Positions 5,247 through 44,011 of a stretch of 44,011 nucleotides of DNA are shown here, in pieces. Position numbers and translations under genes: made by a program. Position 1 is the first letter of the stretch; every line of letters begins with the position of its first letter. Below the pieces are notes generated by a model. The model ran no database searches. It saw only the letters and a program-made list of their open reading frames with translations, and had not been told where the DNA came from. Source of the DNA: a virus (Duplodnaviria; Caudoviricetes); the IMG/VR virus record IMGVR_UViG_3300020045_007976, positions 1 to 44,011 of that record; one strand, 5' to 3'.

Positions 5247-5780
5247 TTATTTTAAAGTTGTTTTTAATTTTTCTTTTAAAGCAATTACAGTCGGCAATGC
5301 TTGCTCGTCTTTTGTGATTTTACTCCAATTGGCTTGAAGTTCCAATATACTCATTGAAGAGTTAAGAACAGATAAAGCACCCACATCACTAACAACCACT
5401 TTTTCAACTGGCTTTACTTTTATACCGCCTGTAACTTTGCCCATCATTTTAACAGCAGGATCAAAATACAAATCTAATTTTATACCTACCCAATTAGGCA
5501 ATAAACGACTTTCTGAGCTGCTTAAATTTTTGGCCTGTTTTGTGATTTCGTTTATGATTTTACGGTTTCCAGAGTTAGCGACCATTGGCTTAACATCTTC
5601 AACAAATTCGATGAAATATCCATCCGTTTTGTTTCCAGATACGTCAACGCCTCTGTCATAATACGCTTCTTTAATTGTAAGCACACAGCTTCCTTTTTCT
5701 TCTACAATAGCCTCAACATCAATACCCGCTAAGTGGGTAGACTTTCTGTATTTCATGCTATCAATGTTTATTTCTTTCAT
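5247..5780 (-). CDS. Putative ssDNA-annealing/recombination protein (start revised to ATG 5780)
   Basis: Lies upstream of the exonuclease and SSB; function is inferred from context only. Confidence 0.5.
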   Translation of the reverse strand: MKEINIDSMKYRKSTHLAGIDVEAIVEEKGSCVLTIKEAYYDRGVDVSGNKTDGYFIEFVEDVKPMVANSGNRKIINEITKQAKNLSSSESRLLPNWVGIKLDLYFDPAVKMMGKVTGGIKVKPVEKVVVSDVGALSVLNSSMSILELQANWSKITKDEQALPTVIALKEKLKTTLK

Positions 5781-14967: not shown

Positions 14968-16624
14968 ATGGAAAATAAAGAAAAAGTGTATTTGAAAGGA
15001 ATGACGGAGTTTGTTTTGGAACAAACTAGGTTTATAAAAACAGCCGATTTTAGAACGTCACATATTCCATTAAATAATCTACATAATTATGCCAACTTCC
15101 TAAACCAACCCCTATGTATTTCGCAATTCGTTGCTTGTAAGTTGGTAGAGGGGAAGTGGAAGGTGTTGGAAGAAATTAACGAAGACTATCCAAATAATGT
15201 AGAGTTTTCTGAAGAAATTGAAGAGTATCGTAAAGCAAAACAACGTTGCTTATTTAAAGGGTTTAAAATTGAATCACATACAGATAACTTCTTTTCGGTT
15301 AGATGCGAAAACAATATTGTAAATGTTATGTGGAACGCTTCTGATGAAAGAAATTGGTTTCCTGCAAGAGGACTTTCAACCATCGAAGACCTAACAAAAT
15401 ACAATTTAGAACTATCACAAACAGCGGTAAAAACATTGGGGTTATGAAAAATTGTACAAATTGCAATAGAACTTTAAAGTCAAAAGGATTAATTTACTCT
15501 ATGTATAAAATCTATAGAGTTTGTCAATGTGGTGAAGACCCTAATCCGAATTATTTGATAGAATTACCAAAAATTAAAACATTAAATTTATAAAACTATG
15601 AAAGTATCACTCAAAAAAGCATTCTCCATCCTTGATGGTAGATTATCAACTGAAATCGGTGACGTGTATGAAATGTTGAATTACATATTTGACGAAAATT
15701 TTATGACACATCAACTACCTACTGCAATGAGAAGATTAAAAGAAATTAACCCAGGTTGGTTTGAAAGAGGAGTTTTTGCATTAGATGAAATTAAAAGAGT
15801 TATTGGAACTGATGATTTTAAACAAATGATGGAAACTATCGAAAATAATTTTTCTCATTTTGAAATCGAATTAGGCAAAGTAAAAGCAGATATTCCCTTT
15901 TTGGCTGGATTTAGATGTTAACCAATTAAACTTGTAATTATGAAAAAACAAACACCAATGCAGGAGCATATTAAAGAGCTTGAAAAGATTCTTAAGGGAC
16001 TTCCTGAGTATAAACCTTCTGAGCAAATAGAAATTGCAATTATAAGCGCAAAGTCTTTTTTAGAAAAAGAAAAGGAGACTATAGAATCCGCTTATGGACA
16101 AGGATTAATTGAAGTTCCTAATTACGAAAATACGAAAGGAACTTATTACGAAAAAACATTTCAAAACAACCAACCATGAACGCAATAGAAACGCTTTTAG
16201 TAATCTCCTGGTTTTTAGGAGCCGGAACAATAATCTTCATTGTTGTGCACGCAAAACAACAATTAAAGAAGAAAGATAATTGCCAGCATAAAGAAGTATT
16301 CGAATGCACTAGTAAAAAAGGCACGGTTACGAAATGTTTGGATTGTAAGAGTAAATTAAAAAATAAATAGGTATGAATACAGAAAATGGTTGCCCTACAT
16401 TCCCACATTTTGGAGCTAGTTATCCAGATGCTTGTTGTATCGATGGTTATTTGTGGGATTTGGATAAATGTAATGACGACGGCTCTTTGTATGGAGGCGG
16501 CGATGATCCTTGTCCGTTCTGTAATTTTGAATCTTTTGTTGATCACAATGTTGATGAAGAAGAAGGAATTACAAGAGAGCTTTTAACTGAATATCGAAGA
16601 AAGATGTTAGAAAAATATGAGTAA
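14968..16624 (+). other. Array of small hypothetical CDSs: 14968-15447, 15444-15593 (CxxC), 15598-15921, 15940-16179, 16176-16370 (TM + Cys), 16373-16624 (Cys/acidic)
   Basis: Co-oriented, abutting ORFs. Confidence 0.7.
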
Positions 16625-16625
16625 C

Positions 16626-16662
16626 AAAAAAAAGACGCTTCTCTTTCGATTGGCGTCTTTTT
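16626..16662. terminator. Bidirectional intrinsic terminator
   Basis: AAAAAGACGC...GCGTCTTTTT between convergent transcription units. Confidence 0.8.
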
Positions 16663-16737
16663 AACGTAATAACCAAACTAAAACCATGAAATCAGATAGT
16701 GAAGATAATCAAAAATAATTACATACACAAAAAATAG

Positions 16738-16812
16738 TACCGAAGATGGGACTCGAACACATACCTGTACAGATTTTAAGTCTGATGCCTCTACCGTTTA
16801 GGCTAAAGAAGT
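16738..16812 (-). tRNA. Degenerate tRNA-Leu(TAA)-like gene (pseudo-tRNA)
   Basis: D-stem GCCT/AGGC, anticodon arm CAGA-CTTAAAA-TCTG and T-loop TTCGAGT are present. The acceptor stem is mostly unpaired and there is no long variable arm. Confidence 0.6.
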
Positions 16813-16815
16813 TTG

Positions 16816-16888
16816 TGGAAAAGGTTAGATTCGAACTAACAACGCTCAGCTCTTCAAACTGACGCTCTACCAATTGAGCTACATTTCC
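16816..16888 (-). tRNA. tRNA-Phe(GAA)
   Basis: Full cloverleaf: GGAAATG/CTTTTCC, GCTC/GAGC, TCAGT-TTGAAGA-GCTGA, GTTAG-TTCGAAT-CTAAC. Confidence 0.92.
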
Positions 16889-16894
16889 TTTTAG

Positions 16895-16966
16895 CGGTCT
16901 ATGAGAGAATCGAACTCTCATCACAAGCGTGACAAGCTTGCATCCTAACCGTTGAACGAATAGACC
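16895..16966 (-). tRNA. tRNA-Asp(GTC)
   Basis: GGTCTAT/ATAGACC, discriminator G, CAAGC-TTGTCAC-GCTTG, GAGAG-TTCGATT-CTCTC. Confidence 0.93.
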
Positions 16967-16970
16967 TTTG

Positions 16971-17037
16971 TGGGACTGCGAGGTATCGAACCTCAGAGTA
17001 AGAGTTTTACAGACTCGACTTCCGCCCGTTCAATCCC
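16971..17037 (-). tRNA. Truncated tRNA-Tyr(GTA)-like gene, 67 nt, no D-stem
   Basis: GGGATTG/CAGTCCC, GAGT-CTGTAAA-ACTC and GAGG-TTCGATA-CCTC are present; the D region is only 13 nt. Confidence 0.7.
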
Positions 17038-17041
17038 AAAT

Positions 17042-17070
17042 AAAAAAATCCCCAACTTTTGAAGGGGATT
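17042..17070 (-). terminator. Intrinsic terminator/attenuator directly upstream of the tRNA cluster
   Basis: AATCCCC...GGGGATT followed by TTTTT. Confidence 0.8.
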
Positions 17071-17093
17071 AAATAATATATTTTAAATCTATA

Positions 17094-17159
17094 TCATACC
17101 AAATCCCTATCGCCTAAAAGCGAATCACAAAATGATAAATATAAACTTGTTGTTTTCAT
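17094..17159 (-). CDS. Putative leader peptide MKTTSLYLSFCDSLLGDRDLV (21 aa)
   Basis: The ATG lies 4 nt after the TAGTTTTG promoter element; the stop is about 23 nt before the terminator. Confidence 0.6.
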   Translation of the reverse strand: MKTTSLYLSFCDSLLGDRDLV

Positions 17160-17163
17160 ACTG

Positions 17164-17171
17164 CAAAACTA
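17164..17171 (-). promoter_or_regulatory. Bacteroidota promoter -7 element (TAGTTTTG) for leader + tRNAs
   Basis: TAnnTTTG with TTGA upstream at about 17186. Confidence 0.75.
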
Positions 17172-17187
17172 TAAAATATTTTTCAAT

Positions 17188-17655
17188 CTACAAAGAAAAC
17201 TTTCTATAAATTTTCCAACACACAAACAAAATCACAATAATTAACGGAAACCACCACCATTTTATTAATCCCTCTCGTTGGCTTTGCTTTGCTTGGGCAA
17301 TCTTTTTTGTCTGTTCCTGTTTTTTCGTGTTTGTATTTGTTTTGTTGGCTGTTTGCTCATTGATTAGTGTATTTGTATTGTTATCAGTTTTTAATGCCTT
17401 ATTTCGCTTTATTTTACGTTGTGTGATTTTCTTCCTAGGCGTTTCAATAATTGTTTCTTCAATCACTTCTTTAGTCGAATCGGTAAAAACAATTCTAGTT
17501 TCTTCTTTTACATTCGAATCAATAACGACATCGTTTTTAATCTCCGTTGTTTCTTGTTTATTTGCTTCGGTTACTTCCTTTGTCTTTTCGACTTTACGGG
17601 CACCGCATGAACATAGCATTAATGCGAATATTCCGATTGTTATTTCTTTTTTCAT
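17188..17655 (-). CDS. Putative unimolecular spanin (start revised to ATG 17655)
   Basis: N-terminal lipobox (ALMLCSC), C-terminal TM (WWWFPLIIVILFVCW); lies downstream of the endolysin. Confidence 0.65.
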   Translation of the reverse strand: MKKEITIGIFALMLCSCGARKVEKTKEVTEANKQETTEIKNDVVIDSNVKEETRIVFTDSTKEVIEETIIETPRKKITQRKIKRNKALKTDNNTNTLINEQTANKTNTNTKKQEQTKKIAQAKQSQREGLIKWWWFPLIIVILFVCWKIYRKFSL

Positions 17656-17698
17656 AATGTTTATTTTTAATTGTGGCGAATTCGCCTTAATTAGAATT

Positions 17699-18157
17699 TT
17701 ATGGTATTGGTTTGAATAAATAAATTGTTTTGATGCCATTATATCCTAAAATTTCTGATGCTGGATATTTATCAATATTTTGATAATCAATATTTGGATC
17801 AAAAACGATATCATAATTTTTATTAATCAAGACAGCATGAGTTATTTGATGTGCATTAATTCCATCTTCTTCTTTATAATATTTTGGAGAAAAAACCGAG
17901 GCATAAAATAGACCATTAACACCGTCATAATCTTTTAGGTTTCCTATTGTTGAATATTCTGAATTCGGATAATTATATAAGCAATGTTCGAATTCAAAAC
18001 CATACTCAAACATAAATCCAGTCATTGCCTCAATCGGAAATTCAAATTTTAAAAAATGTGGCACTTCTTCATATTCTAAATTTAAAAGTGTTGCTATTGC
18101 ACATTTCATACAATCCCCGTTTCCTGCGTCAACCTGCCTTTGAAATACTTTTTTCAT
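17699..18157 (-). CDS. Putative papain-like (C39-type) peptidase-fold protein
   Basis: Q.....GDC...AIA, HAVL and VFDPN suggest a Cys-His-Asp triad. Confidence 0.55.
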   Translation of the reverse strand: MKKVFQRQVDAGNGDCMKCAIATLLNLEYEEVPHFLKFEFPIEAMTGFMFEYGFEFEHCLYNYPNSEYSTIGNLKDYDGVNGLFYASVFSPKYYKEEDGINAHQITHAVLINKNYDIVFDPNIDYQNIDKYPASEILGYNGIKTIYLFKPIP

Positions 18158-43416: not shown

Positions 43417-44011
43417 TGGACTTCAAGTATTCTTTAGCAAAAAAAGGAAAGGTCGTATGTGATAATTGTGGTAAAAAAACCGCAGTTCAATACGTAGAAA
43501 ATGAAACGGGTAATTTTGTGCCAGGCGCAATGCGTTGTGATCGTGAAAGCAATTGCGGTTATCATAAAAAACCAGACTCGAATCCTGTTTTGGTAGTTTC
43601 GATGAAGGATAGGATTATTGAGAAGAAAAGGACATCATTTATTCCGATTCGAACTTTAGATGATATTTTTTCGGTACAGGAGAATGATTATTTAACTCAA
43701 TTTTTATTGACTAAATTCTCAGAAAAAGAAGTTTTTCGAGTTGTTAGAGATTATTTTATTTCGTCTATCAACCGAAAAACAGTCTTTTGGCAAATTGACG
43801 AATTAGAAAGAGTTCGAACGGGTAAAATTATGACTTATAATTCTTCAAACGGAAAAAGGGTAAAAAACCAAGAAGGCAAAGCTGCTATTAATTGGATACA
43901 TTCTTATTTGAAAATTGATAATTTCAATATAGATCAATGCTTGTTTGGACTGCATTTAGTTAAGGAACAGAAAAATAAAACCATTGGATTAGTTGAAAGT
44001 GAGAAAACAGC
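43416..44011 (+). CDS. DUF6371-like primase (Zn-ribbon + Toprim-like), 5' part; continues across the junction to 377, about 283 aa
   Basis: Read manually: MDFKYSLAKKGKVVCDNCGKK...RCDRESNCGYH...FWQID...RTGKIM. Open to the window end and in frame with 18..377. Confidence 0.8.
   Translation, partial: MDFKYSLAKKGKVVCDNCGKKTAVQYVENETGNFVPGAMRCDRESNCGYHKKPDSNPVLVVSMKDRIIEKKRTSFIPIRTLDDIFSVQENDYLTQFLLTKFSEKEVFRVVRDYFISSINRKTVFWQIDELERVRTGKIMTYNSSNGKRVKNQEGKAAINWIHSYLKIDNFNIDQCLFGLHLVKEQKNKTIGLVESEKT
43891..44011. repeat. Second copy of the 121-nt terminal overlap
   Basis: Identical to 1-121. Confidence 0.95.

Follow-up and report, generated by a model that had tools for sequence, protein, structure and literature searches.

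A codon-listing leader that probably gates phage tRNA genes by transcription attenuation

Why phages carry tRNA genes has been an open question for more than 50 years (PMC10264068, part of the text). It bears on a tRNA array in the window, by which we mean the whole stretch of DNA analysed (44,011 nucleotides), an entire phage contig of 44 kb. A preliminary description, made from the letters alone, had placed a promoter, a 21-codon leader and an intrinsic terminator ahead of a block of tRNA genes on the minus strand, and had proposed that the leader switches on these genes when their products are depleted. All four parts were recovered where it had placed them (Table 1). From comparison with related loci and from folding models, we consider it probable that the element is a transcription attenuator read by the ribosome, which gates the tRNA genes through a leader that lists their codons.

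The first 121 nucleotides of the window are repeated at its end (1-121 = 43891-44011), a direct terminal repeat that fits a complete circular assembly. The best matches of the terminase, with 28-39% identity, were in phages of Flavobacterium, Bacteroides, Polaribacter and Cellulophaga, and a Bacteroidota host is therefore likely. Among the window's ORFs, minus-strand terminase, portal, tail and endolysin genes extend down to 17188, and the leader-tRNA element sits directly behind the final gene of this lysis block, an ORF without a family match. Behind the endolysin gene, overlapping ORFs of 152 and 183 aa (17188-18157, minus strand) matched no named family; the second begins like a lipoprotein and is hydrophobic at its end, and the two are possibly a spanin pair. 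The array was also considered as an attachment site, a candidate dropped with no integrase among the ORFs scanned (29 + 36 of 150), which gave one weak excisionase match (E=0.001). In a blastn comparison of 16600-17400 with named phages only tRNA pieces matched (74 records, none covering 80%).

Table 1. Features of the leader-tRNA element and its surroundings in the window
Feature	Positions	Strand	Remarks
183-aa ORF, last of lysis/late block	17188..17739	-	Stop codon overlaps the -33 box; 92% identical to the homolog in L025, the closest relative
Bacteroidota-type promoter, putative	17164..17194	-	-33 TTTG at 17194-17191; -7 TAGTTTTG at 17171-17164; 19-nt spacer
Leader ORF, 21 codons	17094..17159	-	Predicted leaderless or nearly so
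Sensor zone, codons 5-14	17118..17147	-	Ser Leu Tyr Leu Ser Phe Cys Asp Ser Leu; delimited by switch model and family match peak
Anti-antiterminator 1:2, predicted	17085..17148	-	17148-17133 with 17101-17085; -18.0 kcal/mol
Antiterminator 2:3, predicted	17061..17111	-	GGGATT 17107-17102 with AATCCC 17070-17065, plus 8-bp inner helix; -13.9 kcal/mol
Intrinsic terminator 3:4	17042..17070	-	7-bp stem, T7 tail; -10.3 to -10.8 kcal/mol
Miniature tRNA-Tyr(GTA)	16971..17037	-	D-arm shrunken and variable loop short, with intact acceptor, anticodon and T stems
tRNA-Asp(GTC)	16894..16966	-	ARAGORN, Rfam; missing from the same array in 12 close relatives
tRNA-Phe(GAA)	16815..16888	-	ARAGORN, Rfam
Broken chimeric tRNA-Leu	16738..16812	-	Leu(TAA) 5' part joined at the T loop (~16753) to Leu(TAG) 3' end
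Two-way terminator-like hairpin	16626..16662		Closes the tRNA operon against convergent plus-strand genes; L025 has a similar one

The promoter boxes were matched to TTTG and TAGTTTTG, which we take to be the Bacteroidota consensus. On the minus strand the ATG of the leader, at 17159, lies four bases past the TAGTTTTG box, and the leader transcript is likely to be leaderless or nearly so. At the other end of the element, only four bases separate the T run of the terminator from tRNA-Tyr, so there is no room for a promoter between them. An inner promoter bypassing the terminator was also sought; the sigma70-like sites near 17102, upstream of the terminator, occur at chance frequency (26 versus 29.6), and this candidate was rejected.

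The array had been read as Tyr, Asp, Phe and Leu(TAA). Only Asp and Phe were called by ARAGORN, and these scored 60-67 bits with Rfam; Tyr is present as a miniature, but the Leu gene is a broken chimera, with an unpaired acceptor stem and an Rfam match at model positions 8-63 only. The miniature tRNA-Tyr was missed both by ARAGORN (default settings) and by Rfam. It is about 67-69 nt long, is the first gene of its operon, and also occurs at L189 2381, L255 435 and L396 (Gundel_1) 3845, so that 4 of the 23 tRNA-Tyr genes listed have this form. Across the four sequences compensatory changes were found in 11 of 16 pairs. A search for a further pair of short Tyr and Asp genes turned up a single locus, L401, whose Tyr is different and where no leader was evident by eye.

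By the preliminary count, nine of the fifteen codons 6-20 are read by the downstream anticodons. The number is correct, but it is only modestly above chance for the local composition (P=0.024), and the match of 5 of the 9 codons 6-14 gave P=0.13. The broader claim, that leader codons represent the downstream anticodons, was borne out by covariation in the family and among relatives, although GAT 17, GAT 19 and TTG 20 fall outside the sensor zone, in or past the antiterminator strand. Codons 17 and 19 are, on comparison with relatives, structural, since both GATs are retained in L025, L269 and L272, whose arrays have no tRNA-Asp. The weak count in the window itself would suit a reading in which the hairpin merely ends the late or lysis transcript and the small ORF and its codon matches are chance in AT-rich DNA; the terminator scan listed no terminator-like site in the stretch from the lysis genes to the leader, which would also fit.

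To this reading the wider family was compared. The family pattern consisted of ATGAAAA, the terminator tail and the T loop, and was blind to sensor codons and anticodons. It found at least 122 viral loci. Among the matches listed, a tRNA lay no more than 200 nt away in 121 of 124, and 120 of the 121 tRNA-linked units had an ORF of 15-32 aa. After 51 of the 121 units had been dropped (short flank, or in one case a 14-aa ORF), 70 with full flanks were left, and removal of 26 near-duplicates by dereplication at 60% gave 44 units; the result held at 45% (n=35). In the 44 units, drawn from the matches listed, 0.63 of codons 4-15 matched array amino acids, versus 0.26 when permuted (0 of 10,000 permutations, a value that, like the other family statistics, codon and structural alike, is inflated and overstates independence because the units share ancestry). 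In the other two frames the match was 0.21 and 0.18. Conversely, 0.90 of array amino acids were present in the leader, versus 0.41 permuted. By position, the match stood at 0.68-0.86 at codons 7-14 and was at background from codon 18. Because the family pattern fixes the ATG, blocks not selected on it were examined too: a leader ORF was found in 22 of 26 tRNA blocks headed by a terminator, versus 16 of 91 without one, and the codon match in these blocks was 0.74 versus 0.35 (20 units).

The association was also resolved by amino acid in 68 units among the matches listed. Leader and array were associated at P<0.001 for 16 of the 20 amino acids, weakly for Gly and Lys, and not for Ile and Met. 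Counts for both, leader only, array only and neither were 5, 2, 0 and 61 for Asp, 25, 3, 1 and 39 for Tyr, and 15, 6, 1 and 46 for Phe. A single codon per amino acid was the commonest design (126 of 304 among the matches listed), and 42 of the 304 array amino acids had no sensor codon. Sensor Arg codons followed the Arg anticodon family of the array in 15 of 15 cases, tail Arg codons being 21 AGR and 18 CGN. The isoacceptor match was weak for Leu (15 of 20, P=0.07) and absent for Ser (P=1.0), a null result confounded by missed tRNA calls and due in part to missed Ser(GCT) genes. One prediction was made in advance, for a locus found solely by its tRNA-Asp anticodon arm: with an array of Phe, Phe, Glu, Asp, Asp, Glu ... 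Ala, its 29-codon leader had F, D, A or E at every one of codons 8-18. In the same 68 units, the gap between promoter box and ATG was exactly 4 nt in 17 of 21 such boxes. As a separate observation, operons group tRNAs by anticodon base 36, the first codon letter (0.66 versus 0.52 permuted, 50 arrays among the matches listed; for example L397 4267-7777), with no effect of bases 34 or 35 in these arrays; the grouping may come from position-37 modification, nuclease specificity or ancestry.

Six named phage records were examined, and units were found in four Bacteroidota phages. The cultured Cellulophaga phage phi10:1 has one unit (Trp/Ser/Tyr/Cys/Phe), Gundel_1 has two, and Calle_1 and phi38:1, the latter also a cultured Cellulophaga phage, have three each, with every leader matching its own block; the three of phi38:1 cover nearly all amino acids. 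In phi38:1 (L397) the leaders at 5728 and 6971 have TATATTTA, an A-ending variant of the -7 box, four bases ahead of the ATG. The tRNA blocks of Acinetobacter AM24 and Pseudomonas ZC08 held no unit under the filter used. Units recur two or three times per phage, with codons that differ each time. This recurrence, the frame- and position-specific matching across the family and the four-base gap, with no promoter room, leave the reading as a plain transcript end with chance codon matches next to no probability.

Other searches gave fewer units. About 33 of 120 bacterial-genome loci matching the pattern were unit-like by eye, most of the 120 being chance matches; many of the unit-like loci are from Mucilaginibacter and Pedobacter, and others from Chitinophaga agrisoli and an Acidobacteriaceae genome. 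Of 6 loci matched in metagenomes, 3 were units. The first leader pattern gave 2 real units in 24 loci, and a Leu-Ser-Ser pattern multi-tRNA arrays in 16 of 120, some of them leaderless (L041, L062, L138, L144). Several variants were seen along the way. In Mucilaginibacter and Pedobacter genomes a similar leader precedes a spare Pro-Ile(TAT)-Cys/Phe-Gln tRNA operon (L278, L281, L285, L303, L338 and others), and the ORFs around L303 look like ordinary chromosomal regulators. Leaders with Asn runs stand ahead of tRNA-Asn at L359, L364 and L369. In large phages, units with run-type leaders (L163, L191, L156, L208, L212, L221) have Gln runs before several tRNA-Gln genes or Ser runs before several tRNA-Ser genes, and are nearer to classical attenuators than the census type. 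An ORF resembling an HNH endonuclease, annotated as such in Gundel_1 and read by eye in L394, lies between the attenuator terminator and the first tRNA at L394 1836-2234 (minus strand) and L396 4576-5082, and would be co-regulated by virtue of this position.

Covariation of leader codons with array anticodons, a test set beforehand, was passed not only at family level but also among close relatives. Twelve of these have complete arrays (L015, L021, L025, L054, L172, L175, L197, L198, L214, L216, L269 and L272; the tally leaves out the truncated L236 and L264). In all 12, a Phe codon within codons 5-15 tracked tRNA-Phe (7 with, 5 without), a Cys codon tracked tRNA-Cys (6 with, 6 without) and a Trp codon tracked tRNA-Trp (3 with, 9 without). 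As exceptions, no tRNA was called for the Leu codon of L197 or for the His codon of L198; in L021, L197, L214 and L216 some array slots have no confident ARAGORN call. A sensor Asp codon and an array tRNA-Asp were found in none of the 12, and within this close group occur only in the window phage.

The array of the closest relative, L025, reads Tyr, Phe, Leu(TAA), Ser(TGA), Ser(GCT), Cys, Leu(TAG). Where L025 has its Tyr, the window has the miniature Tyr and Asp. Three codons distinguish the two leaders, and just one of them, codon 12, is in the sensor zone, with TAT in L025 and GAT in the window; of 90 single-base substitutions possible in the L025 sensor zone, only 2 would produce Asp. From this comparison the window unit appears to have gained tRNA-Asp together with a matching TAT-to-GAT change. 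Relative to L025 the window is also without about 352 nt, comprising Ser(TGA), Ser(GCT), Cys and most of Leu(TAG). The sequence common to both sides at the join is only a few bases, which argues for a true deletion and against mis-assembly. In one related contig the halves of the Leu chimera are separated by about 335 further letters, as in L025. The loss of the Ser, Ser, Cys and Leu genes presumably came after the gain of tRNA-Asp. Five sensor codons (Ser three times, Cys, and Leu CTT) point to the deleted genes, and the window leader has a single Phe codon. The pre-deletion set together with Asp would read all 11 of codons 5-15 (post hoc P=2e-4, on the assumption that U34 decodes every one of the four codons in a family box).

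The window unit is, by this comparison, part-decayed: four genes are lost, Leu is broken, of the 10 sensor codons, 7 are for genes now missing or broken and 3 for an intact or plausibly intact tRNA, and the terminator loop is one base off the family TTCG. It might then be that the family is real and that this copy is vestigial, its operon and switch no longer useful after the deletion. The promoter, the ORF and all three helices are intact, however, Asp and Phe keep their Rfam scores, the miniature tRNA-Tyr retains three stems, and an Asp codon matches the gained tRNA-Asp. We consider a vestigial copy unlikely. On the attenuator reading, the window copy would be a near-single-step record of co-evolution between leader and array, and in addition an array decaying ahead of its sensor.

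The attenuator reading depends on alternative RNA structures, and these were folded. Three helices, 1:2, 2:3 and 3:4, were predicted to be mutually exclusive. The terminator arms lie at 17070-17064 and 17053-17047, with the T run reaching 17042; a generic terminator scan did not list this hairpin. The pairing of GGGATT with the terminator arm AATCCC, put forward in the preliminary description, is present in the predicted antiterminator. That helix had been thought to be only about 6 bp long, but with an 8-bp inner helix and two outer pairs it is predicted to have 14-16 bp. The 1:2 anti-antiterminator was an addition to the features described earlier.

A ribosome was then modelled by masking the RNA to 9 nt past the A site. 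The modelled probability of the terminator was 0.93-0.95 with the ribosome at codons 2-4, fell to 0.87 at codon 5 and to 0.31-0.57 over codons 6-14, and returned to 0.93-0.95 for codons 15-22. Masks of 6 or 12 nt moved the switch window by one codon. In the model, as had been proposed, the position of the ribosome decides the terminator, which opens at codons 6-14 only and is closed from codon 15 on. The modelled switch window corresponds to the codons that match tRNAs, and the peak of the family match falls in the same window.

Similar structures were predicted across the family. With the ribosome at codons 8-13, 41 of 43 units had the terminator 5' arm sequestered (>0.5), as against 14 of the 43 shuffled controls; L204, in which the terminator was not parsed, was left out of these tests. 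Helices were compared by per-sequence folds and terminator swaps. Leaders paired with their own terminator at 0.75 versus 0.60 with foreign ones (0 of 10,000 permutations; 43 units), although the foreign control is already at 0.60 and the own terminator ranked first in only 9 of 43 units. Each of 13 relatives folded had its own antiterminator over the terminator 5' arm (-7.7 to -22.2 kcal/mol), with differing sequences; in L172, L175 and L015 it was weaker than the terminator. In equilibrium folding the family mean terminator probability at codons 7-13 was 0.72-0.78, and that of phi10:1 and Gundel_1 was 0.9-1.0. The finished terminator is favoured at equilibrium in most units, and the model therefore depends on 2:3 forming first, during transcription. 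In the window and the family alike a short ORF stands ahead of an intrinsic terminator, and the control codons match what the operon supplies; in the model the helices are exclusive and 2:3 is free only with a ribosome at the control codons, as in an attenuator.

Leader-peptide attenuators include trpL, hisL and the multivalent thrL and ilvGMEDA, and comparative attenuator surveys have reportedly been made by Vitreschak and Lyubetsky. As in amino-acid operon attenuators, a single leader can read several amino acids. Their output is enzymes, whereas that of the phage unit is tRNA genes, and the unit is phage-borne with a near-leaderless start. Amino-acid operon leaders have codon runs; the phage leaders cover up to 7-10 amino acids, mostly once or twice each, and unlike the former their codons are rewritten as the array changes. 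A short leader ORF, exclusive 1:2, 2:3 and 3:4 helices and stall-dependent antitermination, all predicted here, are likewise described for pheL-type attenuators (PMC3082878, part of the text). The Rfam Phe_leader model (RF01859) scored 19.5 bits in the window against a cut-off of 55 (E=1.9), and 27.9 bits in Gundel_1; the downstream genes are tRNAs, not biosynthetic or synthetase genes, and there is no run of codons for a single amino acid. The element falls outside all Rfam leader families.

In the pheST (pheM) attenuator and in T-box riboswitches, tRNA charging controls aminoacyl-tRNA synthetase genes through a terminator. The phage unit is predicted to resemble them in that charging state would control translation-machinery genes through a terminator, but they raise the charging enzyme for one amino acid, and T-boxes bind tRNA directly, with no ORF. 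In TnaC and ErmCL, it is the nascent peptide that stalls the ribosome. Control of either kind, by T-box-like tRNA binding independent of translation or by a stalling peptide, could be imagined here, since the RNA folds alternatively without a ribosome and an MKT or MKN start is common, though ATGAAAA was selected by the pattern. We regard such control as very unlikely: the T-box Rfam model (Stem I specifier loop, T-box bulge) had no match and no other cis-element reached the Rfam threshold, many different codons match together in one frame behind the ATG, and the peptide sequences vary freely with the array.

We propose the following mechanism for the attenuator. The leader would list the codons that the downstream tRNAs read, and the near-leaderless transcript would be translated by a ribosome coupled to the host RNA polymerase. 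With no ribosome, 1:2 would form and then the terminator; once a ribosome had reached codon 15 or beyond, strand 2 would be masked and the terminator would again form. A ribosome slowed at codons 6-14 would mask strand 1 and leave strand 2 free, so that 2:3 could sequester the terminator arm, and by antitermination the tRNAs would be transcribed when those listed are scarce. Since leader codons match the tRNAs that follow them across dozens of phages, the tRNAs are likely to be made only when ribosomes run short of them.

The signal is probably a loss of usable tRNA, most plausibly through host defences that target tRNA. A viral tRNA is said to counter the PARIS defence. The tRNA-Tyr of T5 and SP15 overcomes the tRNA-cleaving retron-Eco7, with a strong promoter and in a dose-dependent manner (PMC11555353, part of the text), and that of T6 rescues against Septu by gene amplification, again dose-dependently (PMC13096335, part of the text). 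Such anti-defence tRNAs replace destroyed host tRNAs, and the phage unit likely serves the same purpose; where they rely on a strong promoter or gene amplification, the unit is predicted to use feedback gating. A term search found attenuation or a leader mentioned in neither source, as far as their available text goes. The long variable arm of tRNA-Tyr is cut by two E. coli defences (PMC13096335, part of the text), and the miniature tRNA-Tyr has no such arm, a feature that is suggestive, and only that, of a defence trigger.

The same switch could have another trigger, an ordinary shortage of charged tRNA, brought about by limiting amino acids, by heavy translation late in infection, by general decay of host RNA or by loss of position-37 modification, with no tRNA-specific defence nuclease. 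Classical attenuators answer limiting aminoacyl-tRNA (PMC3082878, part of the text), the three units of phi38:1 span nearly all amino acids, unit-like loci occur in bacterial genomes (the 33 or so judged by eye), arrays group by anticodon base 36, and Ser codons do not follow isoacceptors. In Anabaena PCC 7120 the trn operon is likewise a spare tRNA array, silent until translation is impaired (PMC8421152, PMC10272220, part of the text of each), and general translational stress induces it (PMC8421152, same portion). It is the nearest published inducible tRNA operon found, within the text available; there a protein repressor, TrcR, acts at initiation with no codon-specific sensing, unlike the phage unit, and a term search of the available text of PMC8421152 found no mention of attenuation or a leader. 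Full-text searches, which left most subscription papers outside their coverage, found no published description of leader-peptide control of tRNA genes. We favour tRNA loss over amino-acid hunger because more tRNA would not cure amino-acid starvation, because the commonest design, a single sensor codon, should fit near-total loss better than mild undercharging, and because Arg codons follow the isoacceptor; the arm-less miniature tRNA-Tyr also counts against an ordinary shortage. Whether tRNA-targeting defence is the main trigger is close to an even bet. That the census leader of Bacteroidota phages, with one codon per tRNA, is a feedback alarm against tRNA-destroying immunity, in which the loss of any tRNA on the list would turn on replacements, the arm-less tRNA-Tyr included, is a tentative reading, somewhat short of an even chance; an ordinary shortage as the trigger is possible, if rather doubtful.

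Because the switch lists the array's own codons, these phage tRNAs would be an on-demand response to shortage and not a constitutive supplement for codon bias. Attenuation would be extended from the supply of amino acids to that of tRNAs, and the purpose of phage tRNAs would become testable with one reporter, or in the cultured phi38:1, for which infection transcriptomes are published (PMC5335546). Leaders could predict tRNA genes missed by ARAGORN and Rfam, and could serve as compact genetic sensors that report tRNA loss, with which tRNA-targeting defences might be found in Bacteroidota. If the feedback-alarm reading is true, the leader sequences would be a map of the tRNAs attacked by host defences.
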